In this document: piece after piece, positions 49,565 through 56,810 of the stretch | Position numbering within the stretch: the first letter of the stretch is position 1 | How the letters are laid out: each line of letters begins with the position of its first letter | DNA from: Alphaproteobacteria bacterium | GTDB taxonomy: Bacteria; Pseudomonadota; Alphaproteobacteria; UBA6615 | Assembly (NCBI GenBank): GCA_021774445.1 | Contig: JAJFJA010000074.1 | Coordinates: 23,387 to 87,386 of the forward strand | DNA: 64,000 nucleotides | Direction: 5' to 3' | The notes under the pieces: model-generated | The model's input: only the letters and a program-made list of their open reading frames with translations | What the model was told of the DNA's origin: nothing | Databases searched by the model: none | Program-made: the position numbers and the translations under genes

Positions 49565-50509
49565 TCAGCCGAGGGCGTCCGCGAGTTCCGGGAGAACGGT
49601 AAAGAGGTCGGCGACCAAGCCATAGTCGGCGACCTGAAAAATCGGCGCTTCTTCGTCTTTGTTGATGGCGACGATGACTTTGCTGTCTTTCATGCCGGCA
49701 AGGTGCTGGATGGCACCCGAAATGCCGACGGCGATGTAAAGCTCCGGCGCGACGACTTTGCCGGTCTGGCCGACCTGGTAATCATTGGGCACGAAGCCTG
49801 CATCGACAGCGGCGCGTGAGGCACCGATGGCGGCGGCCAGCTTGTCGGCGATCGGCTCGAGCAGGGCGAAATTCTCACCCGAACCCATGCCGCGGCCGCC
49901 GGAGATGATGACACGAGCGGCGGTCAACTCGGGGCGTTCGCTCTCGGTTGCGTCGAGAGATACGAACTGGGCCAAGCCCGACGCCGCCGGCGCGGCGATG
50001 CTTTCCACGGCAGCAGCGCCGCCCTCCGCGGCCACCGGATCGAAAGCCGTGGCGCGCACGGTGATGAGTTTGGTGGCATCGGCAGACTTGACCGTTGCCA
50101 TGGCGTTGCCGGCGTAAATCGGCCGGATGAAAGTGTCGGCGTCGACGATGCCGGATATCTCCGAAATCTGCTGGACGTCGAGCAACGCCGCGGTGCGGGG
50201 CAACAAGTTCTTGCCGAAGGTGGTCGCAGGGGCGAGGACATGGCTGAAGCCCGCGGCCTGAGACACCACGATCGGCGCCAAATCCTCGGCCACGGCAGGG
50301 CTGAGCGCGGCATCGTCGGCACAGCGGACCGCGGCGACTCCAGCCGCTGCCGCGGCGGCCTTGGCGGCGGCGGCGCAATTATGGCCGGCGACGAGCACGA
50401 CGATATCGCCGGCGCCATGCTGGGACAGCTGCGCCGCGGCGGCGATGGTGTTCAGAGTGGCCGGCTTGAGGCTGGCGTTGTCATGTTCGGCAATGACGAG
50501 AATGCTCAT
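49565..50509 (-). CDS. etfA: Electron transfer flavoprotein alpha subunit
   Basis: [22 protein letters not shown] and [26 protein letters not shown]. Confidence 0.96.
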
Positions 50510-51258
50510 GAAATCACCTTCGCCTCATTTCTAAGCTTGTCTACCAATTCGGCAACGTCGGCGACGATGACGCCGGCTTGGCGGCTCGCTGGCTCCTCGA
50601 CCTTGAGCGTGGTCAGGCGCGGAGCCGGATCGATGCCGAGATCGTCGGGCGTGACCTGGTCGATCGGCTTGCGTTTGGCTTTCATGATGTTCGGCAAAGA
50701 GGCGTAGCGCGGTTCGTTGAGACGCAGGTCGGTGGTCACGACCGCGGGCATTTTCAGGGTTAGAGTCTCCAGCCCGCCGTCGACTTCGCGGGTCACGGTG
50801 GCAGAGCCATCGGCCAGCGCCAGTTTGGAGGTGAAAGTGCCCTGAGCCCAGCCCAGTAAGGCCGCCAGCATCTGGCCGGTCTGATTGCTGTCATCGTCGA
50901 TGGCCTGTTTGCCGAGGATCACCAGTTGAGGATCCTCGCGTTTGACCAGAGCGGCCAGCAGCTTGGCGACGGCCAGAGGTTCCAGCGCGACATCGGTGGC
51001 GACATGGATGCCACGGTCGGCGCCCATGGCGAGAGCGGTGCGGATGGTTTCCTGACACTGCTGGACGCCGAGGGAGACGGCGACGATTTCAGTGACCGTG
51101 CCGGCCTCTTTCAGGCGCAGGGCTTCTTCGACGGCGATTTCGTCGAACGGATTCATGGACATTTTGACGTTGGCGGTGTCGACGCCGCTGCCGTCGGTCT
51201 TGACGCGGATCTTAACGTTGTAATCGACAACCCGTTTTACCGGGACCAGAACCTTCAT
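50506..51258 (-). CDS. etfB: Electron transfer flavoprotein beta subunit
   Basis: [30 protein letters not shown] and [10 protein letters not shown]. Confidence 0.96.
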
Positions 51259-51292
51259 CTGTACTCCCCGTCAGCCAATCGCGAGCGTATTT

Positions 51293-51304
51293 TGCACCGC
51301 ACCA
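51293..51304. promoter_or_regulatory. PhaR-box-like site upstream of etfB
   Basis: TGCACCGCACCA fits TGCRNYGCASMA, 35 nt upstream of the etfB start. Confidence 0.5.
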
Positions 51305-51355
51305 TATCGCTTATCCTTAGAGTGCTGTCAAACATCGGTCTCTGTTCGGTAAGAT

Positions 51356-51928
51356 TTAGTCAATATTTGCGCCGGGTTGCCATAGAACATCGGCCTTGCC
51401 GCCGTCGTTGAGGTGACGCGCCAAGACGAACAAGTGGTCGGAAAGGCGGTTGGCGTATTGCAGCGCAAATGGATTGATTTCGGCAACCGTTGCGAGGTGA
51501 GAAATCAGCCGTTCGGCCCGGCGGGTCACCGTGCGGGCGAGGTGGAGATAGGCGGCAGCGGCGCTGCCGCCGGGCAAGACGAAGGATTGTAGCGGCGCCA
51601 AGGGCTCGTTGAGGGCATCGATTTCTTGCTCGAGGCGGCCGATCTGGGCGGCGGTGATCCGTAGGGCGCCAGATTTGCGCTCCTGGTCGTGGGGGGTGCA
51701 GAGATCGGCGCCGAGATCGAACAAGTCGTTTTGAATACGCGCCAGCATGGCATCTTCTGCGGCCGTTTCGGCGGTGTGGAGCCGGACGATGCCGATGGCG
51801 CTGTTCGCTTCATCGACGGTGCCGAAGGCGGCAACGCGCAGGTCATGCTTGGGTACCCGGCGACCACTGCCCAAAGAGGTCTCGCCGCGGTCGCCGCCGC
51901 GGGTGTAGATGCGGGTGAGTTGAACCAT
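51356..51928 (-). CDS. pduO: ATP:cob(I)alamin adenosyltransferase, PduO type
   Basis: IYTRGGD.GET, GTVDEANS, QNDLFDLGADL, FVLPGG, RRAER and NRLSD.LF. Confidence 0.95.
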   Translation of the reverse strand: MVQLTRIYTRGGDRGETSLGSGRRVPKHDLRVAAFGTVDEANSAIGIVRLHTAETAAEDAMLARIQNDLFDLGADLCTPHDQERKSGALRITAAQIGRLEQEIDALNEPLAPLQSFVLPGGSAAAAYLHLARTVTRRAERLISHLATVAEINPFALQYANRLSDHLFVLARHLNDGGKADVLWQPGANID

Positions 51929-51945
51929 GACGCCTCGTTTGGGAG

Positions 51946-52143
51946 TTAACCCCGGCTGCTGAGAATGAGCAGGACGAACAATATAACGGCGATCAATTGC
52001 AGAGCGACACGGACCCGCATCAACTTGTTGCCGAAACGCTGATTGACCTCGCCGCCCTTGGCCATCACGACGACCCCCGCCAACAGGGTCAGGAGTACGG
52101 CGGCCAAGGCCACGGCCACGAGGATGGGCAGCAGAGTGTCCAT
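51946..52143 (-). CDS. Twin transmembrane helix small protein (HIG1 family)
   Basis: MDTLLPIL...GVVVMAKGG...NKLMRVRVALQ; usual position upstream of pduO. Confidence 0.88.
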   Translation of the reverse strand: MDTLLPILVAVALAAVLLTLLAGVVVMAKGGEVNQRFGNKLMRVRVALQLIAVILFVLLILSSRG

Positions 52144-52196
52144 GGGGAAGGTATAAACCGCCGTGGCGGCGGTGGCGAGTGCGGCATGCCGCGCGG

Positions 52197-52592
52197 TCAG
52201 TCGGGCAGATTCACCGGGAGGGCGCGGGCCGCCGGAAGGGGCTCGGATACCAATGGCGAGAGGGTCCGGGCGAGGTGACAGAGCACGCCATGGCGATAGA
52301 GTGTGGCGACGGCGGCCCAGGCGTAGTGAATGTCGCATCCGGTACCGCAATGCATGCGGATCCGGGGATCGCTGACATGTTCGGTCAGTCGTGCGGCGAT
52401 ATCGGCGCCGGCGCCGACATAAAGCCAGCGGCGGCCGCCGCCATTGTCCTGCCAGATGAGATAGACCCCACTGACACCGCGGGCGGCGTTGGGGTCGAGG
52501 CCGGTGGCGCTGCTGCGCGACCAGCTTAACCATTGTGCGGGTTGGCCGGGCTGATCCGGCCTGGCCTGGAGATCGGCGTCGGTGATGGTCAT
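52197..52592 (-). CDS. Small GIY-YIG-like protein
   Basis: GVYLIW...LYVG..DIAARLTEH pattern; C-terminal PVNLP. Confidence 0.65.
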   Translation of the reverse strand: MTITDADLQARPDQPGQPAQWLSWSRSSATGLDPNAARGVSGVYLIWQDNGGGRRWLYVGAGADIAARLTEHVSDPRIRMHCGTGCDIHYAWAAVATLYRHGVLCHLARTLSPLVSEPLPAARALPVNLPD

Positions 52593-52682
52593 GGTGGACG
52601 GCTACCTGCCTTTTTGACCCCACCAGTTTCCGACTGCGACCTTGATTAAGCGTTAAACCGCCGCCGGTTTTCGACCGAAACC

Positions 52683-53747
52683 CTATCGCCGCCGCCGTTT
52701 TTGCGCCTGGACGGATTTGTGGTATTTGCCAATGTCGCGGGCGCGCTTGCGACGCTCGGCGGTGGTGCCGCTGTTGCGGCTCTGTTCGGCCTGAAGCTTG
52801 CGATAGCTGTCGAGGCGCCTTTGGTCCAGCTGGCCATTGGCCAAGGCCGCCGCGACCGCGCAGCCGGGCTCGTCTTGGTGGCCGCAATCGGCGAATCGGC
52901 ACGCGGTGGCGAGATCGTCGATCTCCGCGAAGACGTCGGCCAGGCCGGCCTGCATATCGGCCAAACCGAGTTCACGCATGCCGGGGGTGTCGATGACCCA
53001 GCCGCCACTGGGTAGGCGATGGAGCGAACGGCCGGTGGTGGTGTGTCGGCCCTTGGCGTCATCCTCCCGGATAGACCGCGTACGCTGCCCATCGTCGCCG
53101 CGGAGGGTGTTTACCAAGGTGGATTTGCCGGTGCCGGAAGAACCGACCAGAGCGACCGTCTGACCCTGGCCGCACCAGTCTAGTAGAGGGGCGACACTGG
53201 CGTGATCGGTGGCATTGACACATTCGACGAGCAAGGCGGGCATCAACGACCCCGCCTGTTGGCGAAACGGCCCGGGGTCATCGACGAGGTCGGCCTTGGT
53301 GAGGACGACGATTGGATAACAGCCGGCGTCAGAGGCGAGAGCGAGATAGCGCTCGAGCCGCGACAGGTTGAAATCCTCGTTGCAGGAGGAGGTGATGAAC
53401 AAGGTGTCGACGTTGGCGGCGATGGGCTGGACCCGACCGCTGTTGCCGGCGGCCCGGCGCTTGAGCAGGCTGGCGCGGCGCAGGCGGCGCAGCGGGACAT
53501 GGGTTCGGGGGTCGAGAAGCAGCCAATCGCCGACGGTTGGCCGCTCTTCATCGGCATGGTCGAGGAAGGCGGCCGGCAGCGTTATGGCGGTAGGAATAGT
53601 GGCATCCGGGGCGAGGATCCCGAGGCCGCCGCGATGCACCGTGGCGACGCGGACCGGGATGCTGTCGGCGATCTCGGCAATAGAAAGCTGTTGTTGGTAA
53701 AAGGGTGTCCAGCCGAGATCGGCCAAGGTGTTGTTTCGTCCTGTCAT
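52683..53747 (-). CDS. rsgA: Ribosome small subunit-dependent GTPase A (circularly permuted GTPase)
   Basis: PTVGDW, AANVD, TKAD, GSSGTGKSTLVN, GRHTTT, DTPGMR and Zn finger CRFADCGHQDEPGC. Confidence 0.93.
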   Translation of the reverse strand: MTGRNNTLADLGWTPFYQQQLSIAEIADSIPVRVATVHRGGLGILAPDATIPTAITLPAAFLDHADEERPTVGDWLLLDPRTHVPLRRLRRASLLKRRAAGNSGRVQPIAANVDTLFITSSCNEDFNLSRLERYLALASDAGCYPIVVLTKADLVDDPGPFRQQAGSLMPALLVECVNATDHASVAPLLDWCGQGQTVALVGSSGTGKSTLVNTLRGDDGQRTRSIREDDAKGRHTTTGRSLHRLPSGGWVIDTPGMRELGLADMQAGLADVFAEIDDLATACRFADCGHQDEPGCAVAAALANGQLDQRRLDSYRKLQAEQSRNSGTTAERRKRARDIGKYHKSVQAQKRRRR

Positions 53748-53930
53748 TGTCGTTCTTCTCGTCGGGCCGGCAAAGCGGCCTTGCCGCACGCCGGCAGCAT
53801 GGCGCGGGGCGGTCATTGGAATAGAACGGGTGCGGACAGGGCGTTTCAGCCAGCCAAAAACGGCTGGCGCACATCGGGATCGGTTTTCCGGGATCGGCTG
53901 TCGAGCCAATCCAAGGCTAAGGCTGTCGCC

Positions 53931-53987
53931 TCAACCGATGGCGTGCGTAATGGCGCCCGTCCGGCGAGTTGTGCGCATCACAATCAT
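53931..53987 (-). CDS. Putative leader peptide (uORF) of rsgA, MIVMRTTRRTGAITHAIG
   Basis: Perfect SD TAAGGAG (54000-53994) 6 nt before the ATG; 18 codons, with the stop embedded in hairpin-forming sequence. Confidence 0.7.
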   Translation of the reverse strand: MIVMRTTRRTGAITHAIG

Positions 53988-54025
53988 CACGAACTCCTTA
54001 TGCAATCAGTGCGAAACGGAGGTCG

Positions 54026-55036
54026 TTATACCGTCTGCGTCGGCGCTGGGGCAAGCGCTGGCTCCGGTTTTTGGCCGAGGAAACCTTTTGGGACCCGCTT
54101 CACCGTGCCGCCCAATTTCTCGAACCAGTCGAAGATGTCGTCCTCATTCAGGACATGCCGGTACCGGCACAGATAATAATCGAAGAATCCTTCCCGGTGA
54201 TACGCCACGCTCTCGCCGACCGCCTGGTTGCCTTCCAGAAGGAAACGCGCGCGCCATCGCTTGCGGTTTAGGAGTTTGAGAATTCTTGAATCGAGCAAGA
54301 ATTTGTAGAGATACGCATAGATCGAGAGTAACCGTTTCGCTCGGCCCGCCGCCATGCGGTGAAATTCGAATCTTTCCCGATCAATCAAGACTCTGCGGTT
54401 GTGGAGGCTCGCCAAATAAATATGGCTGTAGTTAATGCTTCCGCCGGATTTGGTTACACGCCAGATATTGCGATGGGCCAACTCGGGCGATCGCGTGTGA
54501 TGAATGATCCCGCCGGAAACCACGTAGTCGAACATGTTCGATCTGAAGGGAAGATTGCAGAGATCGCCGATGAAGAACTTTATGCCGCGGTATTCGTCTT
54601 GCTTTGCCAGTTGCAAAACGAAGCTGGAAAAATCAATCGCGTAGATCCGTTTCGGAGACATGCCGAGTAAGATGTTGAGTTCGGTGCCCGCGCCGACGCC
54701 CGCGACCAAGACCGTTTTGCCCTCGATTGCCGAGGCGTCGAGTTCCATGGCCCGCGAAATCGAATGCAGCGTTGCGGGGTCCATCGTCGCCGGCGTCCAT
54801 TCGGGCAATATGGCGTCGTAGGAGGTGCCGTCGCGATCGGTCGTCAGACGAAAGTCCGGAATGCCGCCAATCAACGGATAGCTGTGCGACGGTGAAAGCA
54901 ACATGTCTCCGGCACGAGTCAGTGGGACGATTTCGCCGGTGCTGGCGAGGGTGCCGGGGCAGCACAGCTCATCCAACTCGGTCGCCGGGTTAGGAGATGA
55001 TGCGGCGCTTAGTTCGACGATGGACAAAACCGACAT
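54026..55036 (-). CDS. Class I SAM-dependent methyltransferase with Trm112-like N-terminus
   Basis: LCCP...YPLIGGIPDF, VAGVGAGTE, AIDFS, GDLCNLPF..FDYV.S.GIIHHT; visibly lower GC than its neighbours. Confidence 0.8.
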   Translation of the reverse strand: MSVLSIVELSAASSPNPATELDELCCPGTLASTGEIVPLTRAGDMLLSPSHSYPLIGGIPDFRLTTDRDGTSYDAILPEWTPATMDPATLHSISRAMELDASAIEGKTVLVAGVGAGTELNILLGMSPKRIYAIDFSSFVLQLAKQDEYRGIKFFIGDLCNLPFRSNMFDYVVSGGIIHHTRSPELAHRNIWRVTKSGGSINYSHIYLASLHNRRVLIDRERFEFHRMAAGRAKRLLSIYAYLYKFLLDSRILKLLNRKRWRARFLLEGNQAVGESVAYHREGFFDYYLCRYRHVLNEDDIFDWFEKLGGTVKRVPKGFLGQKPEPALAPAPTQTV

Positions 55037-55111: not shown

Positions 55112-56005
55112 CTACATGCGGATCGGTTCGGCGTGGGCGGCCAGTTGATCGGCCATGGCGACAACTTCTGCCGAAGACAGACCCTGTTCGCGCAGGGCGC
55201 GCAGGGTCGGCGCGTTCGTGCGCTTGGCCAGACGGGCGCCGCCGGCGTCGGTGAGGAGTGGGTGATGCGTCCAAATCGGGGTCGGCAGATCCAGCAGCGC
55301 TTGCAGCAAGCGGTGGATATGGGTGGCCGGGAGCAGATCCTCGGCCCGGGTCACCAAGGTGACACCTTGCTCGGCATCATCGATGGTGACGGCGAGATGG
55401 TAGCTGGTGCCGATATCCTTGCGGGCGAGGATGGGGTCGCCAAAGATCTCTGGGCTGGCGACATAATCGCCCCTGATCGTGTCATGCCAGATCAGCGGCG
55501 CCGCTATCGGCGCCAAGGCCCGTTCGAGGTCTAAGCGGATGGCGTGGGGGTGGTTGGCAGCGAGGCGGCGCCGGCGCTGCTCGCCGTCGAGGTTGCGGCA
55601 GGTGCCGGGATAGACCGGGCCATCGGGGCCGTGTTGGGTGAGGTGGGGCGCCTGACTGGCGGCCCGGATCTCAGCCTGGATCTCCTTGCGGGTGCAGAAA
55701 CAGGGATACAGCACACCGGCGGCGTCGAGACGGTCGAGGGCCGCGCGGTAGTGGGCGAGGCGGTCGGATTGGCGCAGAACGGGCTGCTGCCAAGTGATGC
55801 CGAGCCAGCCGAGGTCGTCGAGGATGGCGGTTTCGAATTCGGGCCGGCAGCGGGTGCCGTCGATGTCTTCGATGCGGAGCAGAAAGCGCCCGCCTTCGGC
55901 CTGCGCGAGACGCCAGGCAAACAATGCCGAATAGGCGTGGCCGAGGTGGAGGTGGCCGGTGGGGCTGGGGGCGAATCGCGTAACGATGCTGGGTTCAGGA
56001 GGCAT
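55112..56005 (-). CDS. gluQ: Glutamyl-Q tRNA(Asp) synthetase
   Basis: TRFAPSPTG.LHLGH, LRIEDID, YPCFCTR, YPGTCR, YHLAV..DD and RLAKR; no anticodon-binding domain. Confidence 0.93.
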   Translation of the reverse strand: MPPEPSIVTRFAPSPTGHLHLGHAYSALFAWRLAQAEGGRFLLRIEDIDGTRCRPEFETAILDDLGWLGITWQQPVLRQSDRLAHYRAALDRLDAAGVLYPCFCTRKEIQAEIRAASQAPHLTQHGPDGPVYPGTCRNLDGEQRRRRLAANHPHAIRLDLERALAPIAAPLIWHDTIRGDYVASPEIFGDPILARKDIGTSYHLAVTIDDAEQGVTLVTRAEDLLPATHIHRLLQALLDLPTPIWTHHPLLTDAGGARLAKRTNAPTLRALREQGLSSAEVVAMADQLAAHAEPIRM

Positions 56006-56105
56006 AACGGAATTAAGTGACTTGGGGCCGGTGATCGTTATGAATATAGGGCCAAGGGATGAGAGGCCAAACTCTCGCGGCCCGGCAGGATGAGAATGGA
56101 GCGGC

Positions 56106-56810
56106 GTGGTGAATGATTCGTTACGATCAAAAGACGCTGGACGATCGGCAAACGCCGCGGCTCCCCTAAGCGGGCCGAGTCGTGCCCCACAAAGTGGGCA
56201 GCCGGCGAAACAATTAGTTATTCTGCTGCACGGTTTGGGCGCGGACGGAAACGACCTGATCGGCCTGGCGCCGGGTTGGGCGGGGGTTTTGCCGGAGGCG
56301 GTGTTCGTGGCGCCGGATGCCCCTTTCCCCTGCGACATGGGACCCTTCGGGCGGCAATGGTTCAGTCTGCAGGATTTCTCGGAGGCCCGGATCGCTGCCG
56401 GCGCGCGGGCCGCGGCGGTGCCGCTCAACGCCTTTATCGACGGGGAATTGCAGCGGCTCGGTTTGCATGACGACCGGCTCGTCCTGGTGGGCTTCTCCCA
56501 GGGCTGCATGATGGCGCTGCATGTGGCGCTGCGCCGCCCGAATGCCTGTGCGGGGGTGGTTGGCTATTCGGGGATGTTGGTGGATGGCGGCAGCCTGGCG
56601 ACGGAATTAACGGCGCGGCCACCGGTGCTGCTGGTCCATGGCGACGCCGATCCGGTGGTGCCGCCGGCTTGTCTGCCGGCGGCGGAAGCGGCGCTGAAGG
56701 CGCTGGACGTGCCGGTTTCAGCGCATTTGCGGCCGGGATTGGCGCATGGCATCGACCCGCAGGGCATGGCGTTGGGGGGCGATTTTCTGCGACAGGTTCT
56801 TGCCTGTTGA
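56106..56810 (+). CDS. Phospholipase/carboxylesterase (alpha/beta hydrolase)
   Basis: LHGLGADG.DL, QWF, GFSQG, HGDADPVVP and HGI; exact start uncertain. Confidence 0.9.
   Translation: MVNDSLRSKDAGRSANAAAPLSGPSRAPQSGQPAKQLVILLHGLGADGNDLIGLAPGWAGVLPEAVFVAPDAPFPCDMGPFGRQWFSLQDFSEARIAAGARAAAVPLNAFIDGELQRLGLHDDRLVLVGFSQGCMMALHVALRRPNACAGVVGYSGMLVDGGSLATELTARPPVLLVHGDADPVVPPACLPAAEAALKALDVPVSAHLRPGLAHGIDPQGMALGGDFLRQVLAC

Follow-up and report, generated by a model that had tools for sequence, protein, structure and literature searches.

A candidate translational attenuator with a conserved upstream open reading frame before an RsgA-type GTPase gene

A gene of the rsgA type on the minus strand of the window (the whole 64,000-nt stretch of alphaproteobacterial DNA that was analysed) is preceded by an 18-codon upstream open reading frame (uORF). 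This uORF is probably a translated regulatory leader and belongs with a conserved family found before one clade of rsgA genes. As judged from sequence, the leader is likely to be a ribosome-dependent translational attenuator that switches rsgA according to the passage of ribosomes through the leader. The rsgA-leader family is widespread and so far undescribed.

The leaders of the family consist, from 5′ to 3′, of a strong Shine-Dalgarno sequence (SD) with a uORF of 11–20 codons, a hairpin, a segment termed box 2, two hairpins and a segment termed box 3. The family uORF has an Ile/Val-rich N-terminus and encodes P/R-A-G in its middle part, where the segment termed box 1 is found. Box 3 carries the weak rsgA SD, and its end lies 0–15 nt upstream of the rsgA start. 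The pairing of box 2 with box 3 is referred to as the RBS (ribosome-binding site) helix.

No precedent was found in the literature for a translated leader on an RsgA-type ribosome-assembly GTPase. The leader offers a handle on the role of extra, patchy RsgA paralogues, and on whether bacteria tune 30S maturation factors to actual ribosome performance. The family may be a natural series of variants of a single three-segment RNA switch, and such a series can serve the study of uORF-controlled translation beyond antibiotic-resistance and amino-acid operons. Rfam has no entry for the uORF and leader, which could be annotated there as a cis-regulatory family.

The rsgA gene and its leader in the window

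The window RsgA scores above the cut-off of TIGR00157 (145.4 bits; cut-off 100) and matches PF03193 (RsgA_GTPase; 153 bits, E 8.5e-45), and it lies below the cut-offs of the PRK equivalog models (NF008931, 163 vs 360; NF008932, 94 vs 483). Its start at 53747 was set by an N-terminal alignment with four relatives. An N-terminally extended RsgA, beginning at TTG 53909 or ATG 53816, was rejected: homologues align from 53747, and L010, a relative of the same genus whose RsgA is 66% identical to that of the window, has no in-frame ATG, GTG or TTG further upstream.

The first-pass annotation had described this rsgA as accessory. The source genome (97% complete) holds a single rsgA and lacks a second, housekeeping one, so the gene is not a second copy here. 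What remains of the claim is that the clade is one of paralogues: it is patchy among relatives (present in 5 of 41 genomes) and is an extra copy in gammaproteobacteria. Three gammaproteobacterial genomes have their own copy of this clade at 50%–52% identity to the window RsgA; the other rsgA copies of the same genomes, i.e. those taken as canonical plus a third Photobacterium copy (36%), show 30%–36%. The gene tree of the clade conflicts with taxonomy. The window rsgA, by these comparisons, comes from a patchy paralogue clade that appears to move horizontally. No resistance or mobile-element genes were seen near it.

The coordinates of the leader features are given in Table 1. The uORF was correctly placed by the first-pass annotation at about 180 nt upstream of rsgA; the distance from its stop to the likely rsgA ATG (53747-53745) is 183 nt. 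Its SD gives an anti-SD duplex of −8.8 kcal/mol, versus −3.0 kcal/mol for the rsgA SD. The TATAAC of the candidate promoter overlaps the stop codon of an upstream methyltransferase gene, and the equivalent in L010 is TTGTCA-N17-TATAAC. A consensus scan did not call this promoter because it requires the second hexamer to end in T.

Table 1. Features of rsgA and its leader (window positions)
Feature	Position	Strand	Remarks
Candidate promoter	54054-54025	minus	TTGCCC 54054-54049, 18-nt spacer, TATAAC 54030-54025; by eye, low confidence
uORF SD, TAAGGAG	54000-53994	minus	core AAGGAG 53999-53994, 6-nt spacing to ATG
uORF / putative leader peptide MIVMRTTRRTGAITHAIG	53987-53931	minus	ATG 53987-53985, 18 sense codons, TGA 53933-53931
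Box 1, uORF nt 22-36 (codons R-R-T-G-A)	53966-53952	minus	predicted to pair with box 2 region
Hairpin GGUUGAGGC-GACA-GCCUUAGCC	53936-53915	minus	spans uORF stop; MFE and centroid fold, −11.6 kcal/mol
Hairpin GGAUUGGCU-CGAC-AGCCGAUCC	53912-53891	minus	MFE folds; includes CAGCCGAT, second partner in the first-pass annotation
Hairpin GCCAGCC-GUUUUU-GGCUGGC	53868-53849	minus	MFE folds
Box 2 region	53846-53819	minus	site A 53843-53833 (predicted to pair with box 1) and RBS-helix 5′ arm
Two inner hairpins inside RBS helix	53813-53764	minus	MFE folds
RBS-helix 3′ arm, GAG.AAGAACG	53760-53751	minus	carries weak rsgA SD, ends 3 nt upstream of ATG
rsgA, 354 aa	53747-52683	minus	non-canonical RsgA clade

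The uORF of L010 encodes MIVRDPTRRVGAFKRSIFIC, in which eight of the first 12 residues are identical to those of the window peptide. The differences in these 12 codons number 4, 3 and 5 at codon positions 1, 2 and 3; there is no clear third-position bias in the pair, which alone is uninformative on selection for the peptide. The two leaders are homologous overall (alignment score 31, vs −0.6 ± 4.8 for shuffles). The uORF frame in the window is open into rsgA apart from one TGA. Stop-codon readthrough that would fuse the uORF to rsgA was rejected, as L010 has a second in-frame stop; the frame relation of uORF and rsgA, which is 19/13/7 among 39 family leaders, is also against it.

The 261-nt leader of the window has a minimum free energy (MFE) of −109.7 kcal/mol, compared with −91.5 ± 4.8 for 200 dinucleotide shuffles (z −3.78), none of which is as stable (0/200). 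All pairings drawn in the first-pass annotation are present in the sequence, including GCCAGCC/GGCTGGC and GCCGGC..GCCGGC. The arms of the stop-codon hairpin are GGTTGAGGC (53936-53928) and GCCTTAGCC (53923-53915), joined by the GACA loop, and the 3′ end of the uORF has two rival partners with near-equal duplex energies (−11.6 and −11.5 kcal/mol). A counterpart of this hairpin (53936-53915) is absent in L010. The hairpin at 53912-53891 resembles, by eye, the family box 2 consensus TCTCGACCAGCC. L010 retains the GCCAGCC/GGCUGGC stem around another loop; in the window the U run of this hairpin lies inside the loop and it is therefore not a terminator. No intrinsic terminator was found between the uORF and rsgA on the window minus strand. 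A search of window positions 53000-54800 with Rfam 15 (E up to 10) left the leader unmatched and gave four chance-level matches elsewhere.

Box 1 of the window is paired in the MFE fold and aligns with the GGCTGG(C)GGAGA box of the family. It gives predicted duplexes of −19.4 kcal/mol with 53846-53831 and of −16.2 kcal/mol with 53834-53817, the latter overlapping the 5′ arm of the RBS helix. This arm is CGUUCU.AUUC (53828-53819), and CGCCCTG and CGTTC of the box 2 region are kept in L010. The RBS helix (53828-53819/53760-53751; duplex −9.6 kcal/mol) is present in the MFE fold. Its inner hairpins take in GCCGGC (53795-53790) and GCCGGC (53771-53766), just upstream of the weak rsgA SD, and two enclosed hairpins are a common layout in other family leaders. 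The flanking GCCGG..CGACGAGAA resembles the family box 3, GCYGGT(N)CGAGA. In the window MFE fold the box 1 pairing and the RBS helix are formed together, on adjacent sites, and are therefore not mutually exclusive there.

The window peptide aligns with the family peptides M-[ITS]-[VA]-[IVA]-[VI]-...-[PR]-A-G, with I2 and V3 as the only Ile/Val codons near its N-terminus. Neither the window leader nor that of L010 was found by the covariance model of the family (termed R1). With an nhmmer profile built without these two leaders, the L010 uORF scores 7.4 bits and that of the window 3.3 bits (E = 7.6 over 152 kb, or about 0.014 counting the 280-nt leader alone). The window leader appears to be a divergent, weak member of the family, its membership being indicated by peptide type, position, SD and architecture.

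The uORF family and its paired segments

Family-type uORFs were found upstream of rsgA in 47 of 85 genomic homologues (union of all scans, among the matches listed) and not in the other 38; the genomic homologues are from the best 80 of 587 relatives in a genome scan. The family type is M-x0-3-[IV]-[IV]-...-P/R-A-G-..., with 11–20 codons, a strong SD and 76–207 nt from its stop to the rsgA start. A strict scan (ATG start, SD core of at least 4 nt, no more than 45 codons) gave such uORFs at 29 of the 85 loci, and L010 was added by eye. The nhmmer profile matches 42 of the 85, GTG starts included. R1 matches 41 leaders, 12 of them outside its training set, and the new uORFs were checked. As an independent set, a metagenome scan gave 38 loci (best protein identity to the window RsgA, 56%); 9 of the 36 with at least 200 nt upstream have an M[IN]V-type uORF with a strong SD, and R1 does not detect these uORF-bearing metagenomic leaders. 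The first-pass annotation had named a lack of uORF conservation among homologues as the result that would refute it, and conservation was found in both sets.

The reading frame is kept in the family, as follows from three observations: insertions between the uORF start codon and the ATTGT motif are of 0, 6 or 9 nt; column entropy climbs over codon positions 1, 2 and 3 (14.7, 16.5 and 18.3); and Ile/Val pairs are kept through different codons, e.g. ATT GTN, GTC GTT and GTA ATC. Columns 2–5 of the alignment of 39 peptides have I or V in 90 of 156 cells (58%). Of 40 leaders, 38 have a uORF SD whose anti-SD duplex is stronger than that of the rsgA SD (mean over the 40, −8.6 vs −4.2 kcal/mol).

The leader travels with the rsgA clade and is present in Alphaproteobacteria and some Gammaproteobacteria. 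Among its cultivable carriers are Ferrimonas marina DSM 16917, Reyranella sp., Thalassovita mangrovi and Cribrihabitans marinus. When R1 was run over five whole genomes, the sole match below E = 0.1 was the leader upstream of rsgA. Two of these five were found to have one rsgA each, and none is one of the three gammaproteobacterial genomes, where R1 was run on the loci of the clade copies only and not on the other rsgA copies. Rfam at gathering threshold gave no match in 20 family loci, and the literature showed no leader linked to rsgA/yjeQ, with the proviso that supplementary files might still list small ORFs or RNA motifs. This agrees with the first-pass annotation, which knew of no described system of this kind.

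It should be noted that several loci were set apart. L036 (cut by a contig end) and L048 (contains N) were excluded from the leader analyses. L018, whose uORF has no early stop, was left out of the positional, hairpin/T-run, SD-strength and long-range-pairing tests. The rsgA start of L017 was placed 9 nt too far upstream in the positional, hairpin/T-run and SD tests, where it is one row of about 40, and L017 was excluded from the frame-relation and long-range-pairing counts.

Box 2 is predicted to pair with box 3 across the family, burying the weak rsgA RBS. In a covariance-model-fitted alignment of 44 matches, 68.6% of cells pair, compared with 28%–42% for slid partners; a purely sequence-based alignment gives 66.9% versus 29%–44%. 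There are 29 double-change cells, a number reached by 1 of 500 shuffles, and the covariation score of 0.173 was reached by none (0/500). The arms vary by lineage: TCTCGACC/GGTCGAGA, TCTCGTCC/GGACGAGA, TCTCTCTC/GAGAGAGA, ATCACCGG/CCGGTGAT and CCCGGAC/GTCCGGG. The structured leader of the first-pass annotation is thus recovered as a covarying helix over the weak rsgA RBS. At least seven long-range-paired bases lie in the 22 nt upstream of the rsgA start in 34 of 39 leaders, versus 21.6 ± 2.8 leaders (maximum 28) after shuffling of the upstream part; long-range pairing of a GC-rich start region is frequent by chance, at about 55% of shuffles. No consensus structure came out of RNAalifold for 18 leaders aligned with MAFFT, the variable hairpins being misaligned. 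Unrestricted duplexfold between leader parts yielded long, sloppy duplexes; the helices were instead taken from MFE folds, and column counts were used.

By complementarity and near-equal predicted energies, box 1, which includes the A-G codons, can capture box 2 in place of box 3. In about 25 aligned leaders the sequence of box 1 closely mimics that of box 3, and the three-box layout recurs with other sequences in L072/L092 and L056 and, by eye, in L126 and L115. The box 1:box 2 pairing is found in 70% of cells versus 27%–56% for slid partners (68% versus 31%–55% in a repeat analysis), and its mean z against shuffled uORFs is −1.35. Its covariation score is not above that of shuffles (49/500 and 106/500 in two analyses), and a positional test of exclusivity gives weak support (median percentile 0.31, KS p = 0.027). 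GC-rich leaders yield many spurious duplexes. Full-length MFE folds of 29 leaders show the RBS helix in 12 and box 2 on the uORF in 15; with the uORF masked, an RBS helix of at least four pairs forms in 27 of the 29. When box 2 is on box 1, several MFE folds pair the 5′ codons of the uORF with the rsgA start region, which may leave the “open” state partly closed.

The mutually exclusive pairing proposed in the first-pass annotation is retained in part. A stretch of the uORF does appear to compete for an arm of the RBS helix, but the switch as drawn (GCCTTAGCC vs CAGCCGAT) has no equivalent in L010. At the level of the family, uORF codons 8–12, in place of the uORF 3′ end, are predicted to take part in the competition, together with the RBS-helix 5′ arm.

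Proposed mechanism and rival explanations

Ribosomes traversing the uORF would keep box 1 single-stranded; box 2 would then close on box 3 and rsgA would remain untranslated. With few ribosomes passing box 1, this segment would hold box 2, the rsgA site would be open and RsgA would be made. Low passage could result from failed initiation at the strong-SD uORF, or from a stall on the conserved Ile/Val codons before box 1. The output of rsgA would be inversely tied to ribosome flow through the leader.

A more specific reading, for which the odds are rather poor, is that the leader gauges 30S initiation competence. The uORF would rely on strong SD:anti-SD contact, and rsgA has almost no SD. Immature 30S subunits (unprocessed 16S 3′ end, poor anti-SD function) would load fewer ribosomes on the uORF, box 1 would capture box 2, and the opened rsgA start would give more of a 30S maturation GTPase. 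If true, an mRNA would directly sense ribosome quality and so close a homeostatic feedback loop. In a bolder branch of the same low-probability reading, the clade would be a 30S counterpart of HflXr, drug-induced and protective against decoding-centre drugs.

The first-pass annotation had likened the layout to erm/cat-type attenuators, in which an antibiotic stalls the ribosome on the leader peptide and the RNA is remodelled, here inducing a protective or rescue rsgA. A leader-peptide translational attenuator is the right kind of element; the logic differs, in that a stall at box 1 or beyond it should leave the rsgA site closed, the opposite of ermC. Stalls on the start codon or anywhere upstream of box 1 would free box 1 for box 2, so the RNA logic permits induction by such early stalls. 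Hydrophobic beta-branched residues are conserved at the N-terminus of the peptide, and they resemble the IFVI/IAVV stretches known in the ErmCL and ErmAL1 leaders; R-x-R or K-x-R is present in the peptides of L011, L035, L063, L056 and L020. However, none of the known arrest motifs (RLR, IFVI/IAVV, +x+) is conserved across the 39 aligned peptides, which show a general I/V run and scattered R-x-R only, with RLR absent. The conserved A-G lies inside an RNA box and may therefore reflect an RNA constraint. There are precedents in hflXr (Duval et al. 2018, PMC6310831) and toiL (Baniulyte and Wade 2025, PMC12121999), and like hflXr the gene is in an extra-copy, horizontally moving clade. Resistance or mobile-element genes were not found nearby, and the pairings first drawn are not conserved in L010. 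Drug-induced stalling of this type is considered unlikely, with some chance of being correct. An amino-acid sensor of the ilv/trp type, in which scarce charged tRNA-Ile or tRNA-Val slows ribosomes and opens the rsgA site (with read-through in some lineages), is very unlikely. Near their N-terminus most family peptides do have a run of 2–5 Ile/Val codons. A ribosome stalled there, just upstream of box 1, would promote the box 1:box 2 pairing. A hairpin with a T-rich run (loosely defined) occurs in 18 of 40 leaders versus 3.5 ± 1.9 in shuffles, about 10 of the 18 sites being 43–54 nt upstream of the rsgA start. Against this, rsgA has no link to branched-chain amino acids, and the window has no terminator-like site and only the two regulatory codons I2 and V3. 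The partner of box 2 is downstream of the putative terminator, and box 2 therefore cannot be an antiterminator. A terminator as the main mechanism was rejected: the U-run is enriched but missing from the window, and box 2 cannot antiterminate.

It is also quite improbable that there is no switch, and that the uORF is constitutive (a standby or unfolding element, or an mRNA stabiliser) or encodes a functional peptide, the alternative pairings being by-products of GC content. The spurious duplexes of GC-rich leaders and the roughly 55% of shuffles with long-range pairing of the start region fit this, as does the pairing of uORF 5′ codons with the rsgA start in some MFE folds; by analogy with coat/replicase coupling in phage MS2, the latter would make uORF translation an activator. 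Peptide-level conservation also fits a functional micropeptide, but peptides of 11–18 residues with differing lengths and tails are unlikely stand-alone effectors. The close mimicry of box 3 by box 1, and the recurrence of the three-box overlap with unrelated sequences in other lineages, argue for the attenuator. Least credible, and barely so, is a chance ORF beside a chance SD in the window, with a real leader peptide in other lineages only. The low leave-out score of the window uORF (3.3 bits), its absence from the R1 matches and the long open frames of GC-rich DNA are in its favour. Against it are the perfect AAGGAG at 6-nt spacing, the family-like position, length and MIV start together with the G in the A-G column, and the overall homology of the window and L010 leaders; L010 keeps a MIV...TRR.GA uORF in place even though the RsgA proteins are only 66% identical.

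Comparison with known systems

Like canonical RsgA/YjeQ, the window protein has the PF03193 domain, a TIGR00157 score above the cut-off and a C-terminal Cys/His cluster; it differs in its low identity (30%–36%) to the gammaproteobacterial copies taken as canonical, a range that includes the third Photobacterium copy.

The trp/ilv attenuators have an intrinsic terminator and regulate biosynthesis of the amino acid that is sensed, with full translation giving the OFF fold. The rsgA leader shares with them a short leader peptide, in most family members a run of Ile/Val codons just before a segment predicted to pair alternatively, and a predicted OFF state on full translation. Unlike them, it has no terminator in the window, and its target is a ribosome-assembly GTPase.

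The ermC and cat-86 leaders are built of four segments; a ribosome stalled over segment 1 frees the RBS, and without translation they are OFF. Like these, the rsgA leader combines an RBS-sequestering helix with a leader ORF that has an SD of its own, and exclusive pairings with leader-ORF sequence are predicted for it. It differs in having three segments, in that a covered box 1 should close the RBS, and in that no translation should mean ON.

In E. coli the toiL uORF is upstream of topAI-yjhQ, and tetracycline is reported to stall ribosomes at its start codon (PMC12121999). As in toiL, a uORF is combined with a structure occluding the downstream RBS, ribosome position would set the RNA fold, and de-repression would follow from a stall at the uORF start codon, as it can in toiL (PMC12121999). 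The peptide, RNA and regulated genes are unrelated (a toxin-antitoxin pair in toiL), and the toiL model includes Rho-dependent termination (PMC12121999).

The hflXr gene (lmo0762) of Listeria monocytogenes is a paralogue of a ribosome-associated GTPase beside a housekeeping copy (PMC6310831). The gene function differs, since rsgA acts in 30S maturation and hflX in ribosome splitting. Unlike the rsgA leader, hflXr uses transcription attenuation and has the RLR macrolide motif in its peptide (PMC6310831); the rsgA leader has a conserved RBS helix, no terminator in the window and no conserved RLR. Induction and resistance are shown for hflXr (PMC6310831), and the rsgA leader is known here from its sequence. 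In both cases a GTPase paralogue is preceded by a small ORF (14 aa in hflXr) and alternative RNA structures, and, as described for hflXr, the paralogues appear to have spread by duplication and transfer (PMC6310831).

Genomic setting of the leader open reading frame

The rsgA gene of the window is preceded on the minus strand by a Shine-Dalgarno (SD) sequence and an 18-codon open reading frame (termed the uORF) at 54000-53931, as the first-pass annotation had reported. The uORF stop lies 183 nt from the rsgA ATG at 53747. The rsgA open frame extends upstream as far as a TTG at 53909; position 53747 is taken as the start because the alignment of RsgA from four relatives begins there (MTGRNN...) and because locus L010, from the same genus, displays no in-frame ATG, GTG or TTG farther upstream. 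The 261-nt leader has a predicted folding energy of -109.7 kcal/mol (z -3.78; as stable in 0 of 200 shuffles). It matches no Rfam family.

Features of the rsgA locus in the window
Feature	Position	Strand	Remarks
SAM-dependent methyltransferase (Methyltransf_11)	54026-55036	minus	upstream gene, end at 54026
uORF SD, TAAGGAG	54000-53994	minus	6 nt before ATG
uORF	ATG 53987 to TGA 53933-53931	minus	18 sense codons, peptide MIVMRTTRRTGAITHAIG
rsgA	ATG 53747 taken as start	minus	PF03193 E 8.5e-45; TIGR00157 145 bits vs cut-off 100
rsgA downstream neighbours	49565-52902	minus	small HIG_1_N-domain protein, PduO-type cobalamin adenosyltransferase, electron-transfer flavoprotein beta and alpha

The methyltransferase gene is situated between a tRNA-synt_1c (GluQRS-like) gene (55112-56509, minus strand) and the uORF. 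It looks inserted, since in L010 a gene with a synthetase-like C-terminus (by eye) stands immediately before the uORF. A candidate -10 box overlaps the methyltransferase stop codon. On the opposite strand, a terminator-like hairpin with a T-run (54039-54062, plus strand) lies within the 3′ end of the same gene; the number of such hairpins is at chance level (1 found, 1.2 expected). The genes downstream of rsgA (49565-52902) are housekeeping neighbours, and mobile-element or resistance genes are absent among them. The C-terminus of RsgA (52683-52760, minus strand) shows a Lys/Arg-rich tail, roughly 18 of the last 45 residues being basic; the tail is also present in relatives.

The gene had been termed accessory. 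It is not a second copy, since both a protein search and PF03193 detect one rsgA only in the genome (81 contigs, 97% complete), i.e. no housekeeping copy was found beside it. The term is apt in another sense: the gene belongs to an unusual, patchy paralogue clade, and of 41 related genomes only 5 give any match to it, including 4 of the 24 from the same family. Three gammaproteobacteria with the clade copy also hold other rsgA copies (2, 3 and 2 copies); the window RsgA shares 50-59% identity with the clade copies, against 30-36% with the remaining RsgA of those genomes, which are taken as canonical. In a maximum-likelihood tree of 84 proteins, made by a quick method, the window protein and L010 group with Planctomycetota, Desulfuromusa and gammaproteobacteria in a minor clade; the taxonomic family of the window has three further copies, and these are spread across the tree. 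The window rsgA fits the picture of a horizontally moving paralogue.

Conservation and putative translation of the uORF

Conservation upstream of rsgA homologues was assessed in 85 loci; a genome scan that used five aligned RsgA proteins as the query gave the best 80 of 587 relatives. A strict scan (ATG start, SD core of at least 4 nt, at most 45 codons) gave a uORF of the same type in 29 of the 85, e.g. MTAIVCRPAGGVRRAR, MTAIVMIPAGGDFRAA, MSAAIVRRPAGEGIAA, MIVVKRNRAAEHAPR (Ferrimonas) and MSVIDTPRAVS (Thiodiazotropha). An nhmmer profile, with GTG starts now included, raised the count to 42, and a covariance model of the leader family added four with GTG or TTG starts. All methods united, 47 of these 85 loci carry the uORF. 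It is missing from 38 loci, for the most part Sphingomonadales, several gammaproteobacterial groups, Planctomycetota and Desulfuromusa, together with L012 and L013. Both major tree clades contain the uORF (6/17 and 40/67) and its distribution is clustered, with 15 changes vs 28 in shuffles (0 of 500 as low). The window protein was also used for a separate scan of metagenomes, which yielded 38 loci (best identity 56%). The covariance model detected none of their leaders; among the 36 loci that extend at least 200 nt upstream, 9 have uORFs such as MIVVVAASAGSSRF and MNVVSAIVAGSTLH, with strong SDs, 127-170 nt upstream of rsgA.

Two loci show other arrangements. In L018 (approximately 1284-1712) the uORF stop is lost and the frame stays open for 142 codons, through the entire leader and past the rsgA start; here either the short-ORF design was knocked out naturally or the sequence is in error. 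L013, from a genome of the same family as the window's, carries a mini-ORF of 3 codons (MSR, then a stop) some 156 nt ahead of rsgA, with GGAG before it and a GC hairpin after it, and a 10-codon ORF that ends just before the rsgA start.

The L010 uORF (RsgA 66% identical) is MIVRDPTRRVGAFKRSIFIC, with 207 nt from its stop, and 270 nt from its start, to the rsgA start. The covariance model found neither the window leader nor that of L010, and a profile built without these two gave 3.3 bits for the window uORF and 7.4 bits for L010. Membership of the window copy is suggested by a peptide that begins with MIV and has G at the A-G column, by the location of the uORF and its strong SD, by the shared architecture and by the counterpart in L010. 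The two leaders align with a score of 31, vs -0.6 +/- 4.8 in shuffles (0 of 200 as high), and are homologous overall.

Translation of the uORF is putative, with indirect support from SD strength, length, frame and codon pattern. Mean SD energy is -8.6 kcal/mol for the uORF vs -4.2 for rsgA, the uORF being stronger in 38 of 40. Length is 11-20 codons in 39 of 41, the others being one of 28 codons and L018. Insertions between the start codon and a conserved ATTGT are of 0, 6 or 9 nt, column entropy rises over codon positions 1, 2 and 3 (14.7, 16.5, 18.3), and an Ile/Val pair is retained although its codons vary. A point against translation is that the window and L010 alone show no third-position bias (4/3/5 differences at codon positions 1/2/3).

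The window uORF is in frame with rsgA, and its own TGA is the sole interruption up to the rsgA ATG (53987-53745, minus strand). Readthrough into rsgA is nevertheless unlikely, because L010 has a second in-frame stop and the frame relation across the family is not fixed (19/13/7 of 39).

Pairing over the rsgA start and within the uORF

Single-sequence folds of 29 leaders all show a common design: a hairpin after the uORF, then a long-range helix (termed the RBS helix) that encloses two hairpins. The weak rsgA SD lies in the 3′ arm of this helix, whose end is either 0-15 nt short of the rsgA start or as far as 3 nt inside the start codon. In consensus the arms read TCTCGACCAGC and GCTGGT(N)CGAGA. 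Different lineages display TCTCGTCC/GGACGAGA, TCTCTCTC/GAGAGAGA, ATCACCGG/CCGGTGAT, ATGTCGG/CCGACAT and CCCGGAC/GTCCGGG; the window has CGTTCT.ATTC/GAG.AAGAACG. Chance pairing of this kind is frequent in GC-rich leaders. Long-range pairing at the rsgA start was found in 34 of 39 leaders vs 21.6 +/- 2.8 (maximum 28) in the control. On a sequence-only alignment of 29 leaders, 66.9% of cells are paired vs 29-44% for slid partners, and shuffles were not surpassed. On the model-fitted alignment of 44 hits, which leans towards structure, 68.6% are paired vs 28-42% slid, with 29 compensatory cells, a number reached by 1 of 500 shuffles; the covariation score is 0.173 (reached by 0 of 500). When five whole genomes were scanned with the covariance model, the sole hit below E 0.1 was the site before rsgA.

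The uORF codons for P-A-G-G/E in the aligned leaders, GGCTGG(C)GGAGA, almost duplicate the RBS arm in sequence and are complementary to the same 5′ arm. Two column counts of this competing pairing gave 70% and 68% of cells paired vs 27-56% slid, and 13 and 20 double-change cells (6 and 8 of 500 shuffles); covariation scores were non-significant for both, and cruder tests were weak (mean z -1.35; positional test p 0.027). In full-length minimum free energy (MFE) folds of 29 leaders, the RBS helix forms in 12 and the 5′ arm lies on the uORF in 15. With the uORF masked, mimicking a ribosome, an RBS helix of at least 4 pairs forms in 27. Thiodiazotropha shows the same overlap with a different sequence (uORF CCCGGGCAG against CTGCCCGG), as does Ferrimonas with another; in two metagenomic groups it is seen by eye (GCCGGGU / GAACCCGGU / GGGUUC and GCCGGG / GCACCCCGGC / GGGUGC).

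In the window, uORF nt 22-36 have two possible partners, 53846-53831 (-19.4 kcal/mol), which adjoins the RBS-helix arm, and 53834-53817 (-16.2 kcal/mol), which overlaps it; the RBS helix itself gives -9.6 kcal/mol. Both helices coexist in the window MFE because it takes the adjacent site, 53846-53831. The pairings proposed in the first-pass annotation are all present, and the two competing partners it gave for the uORF 3′ end are of equal strength (-11.6 and -11.5 kcal/mol); these pairings are not the right ones for the switch.

A GC-rich hairpin with a T-run, loosely defined, is found in 18 of 40 leaders vs 3.5 +/- 1.9 in shuffles, and is absent from the window leader. In about ten leaders (within L014-L093) it is the middle hairpin, is followed by 4-5 T and lies roughly 43-54 nt upstream of the rsgA start. 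It is not controllable by the 5′ arm of the RBS helix, and may be a weak terminator, a junction or a protein site. The conserved uORF sequence (G)TCATTGT is complementary to a common rsgA start-codon context, (A)CAATGAC, in many loci (e.g. L026, L030, L031). This may account for Ile being nearly always ATT in these GC-rich genomes.

Proposed control and related systems

The feature is real and conserved: a strong SD precedes a short ORF, a helix covers the weak rsgA start, and part of the uORF mimics an arm of that helix. The kind of element proposed earlier, a leader-peptide attenuator, is thus supported by the conserved uORF, the helix and the arm-mimicking segment. Most likely, ribosome flow through the uORF would set the rsgA start open or closed. 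Passage of ribosomes would leave the arm-mimicking segment single-stranded, and the RBS helix would then shut the rsgA start. With few ribosomes passing, either from poor initiation or from stalling at the conserved Ile/Val codons immediately upstream, the segment would take the 5′ arm and the start would open. This open state calls for caution, as the first uORF codons pair with the rsgA start in several MFE folds.

In ermC the first segment is covered by the stalled ribosome and absence of translation is the OFF state, whereas the rsgA leader is proposed to open when few ribosomes pass. The erm-like logic first suggested is therefore wrong under this model, which closes the start as ribosomes pass. 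Full-text literature searches on rsgA/yjeQ with leader peptide, uORF or attenuation, judged by search listings and term counts, gave no linking paper and no description of this leader.

The E. coli toiL uORF acts by ribosome-binding-site occlusion and responds to stalls at several positions including the start codon (PMC12121999). The closest analogue is hflXr of Listeria (PMC6310831), a ribosome-GTPase paralogue whose leader combines a 14-aa ORF with alternative RNA structures and which is controlled by transcription attenuation and an RLR peptide. The rsgA leader is probably a new case, with an unusual target gene, in the known class of uORF-controlled translational attenuators.
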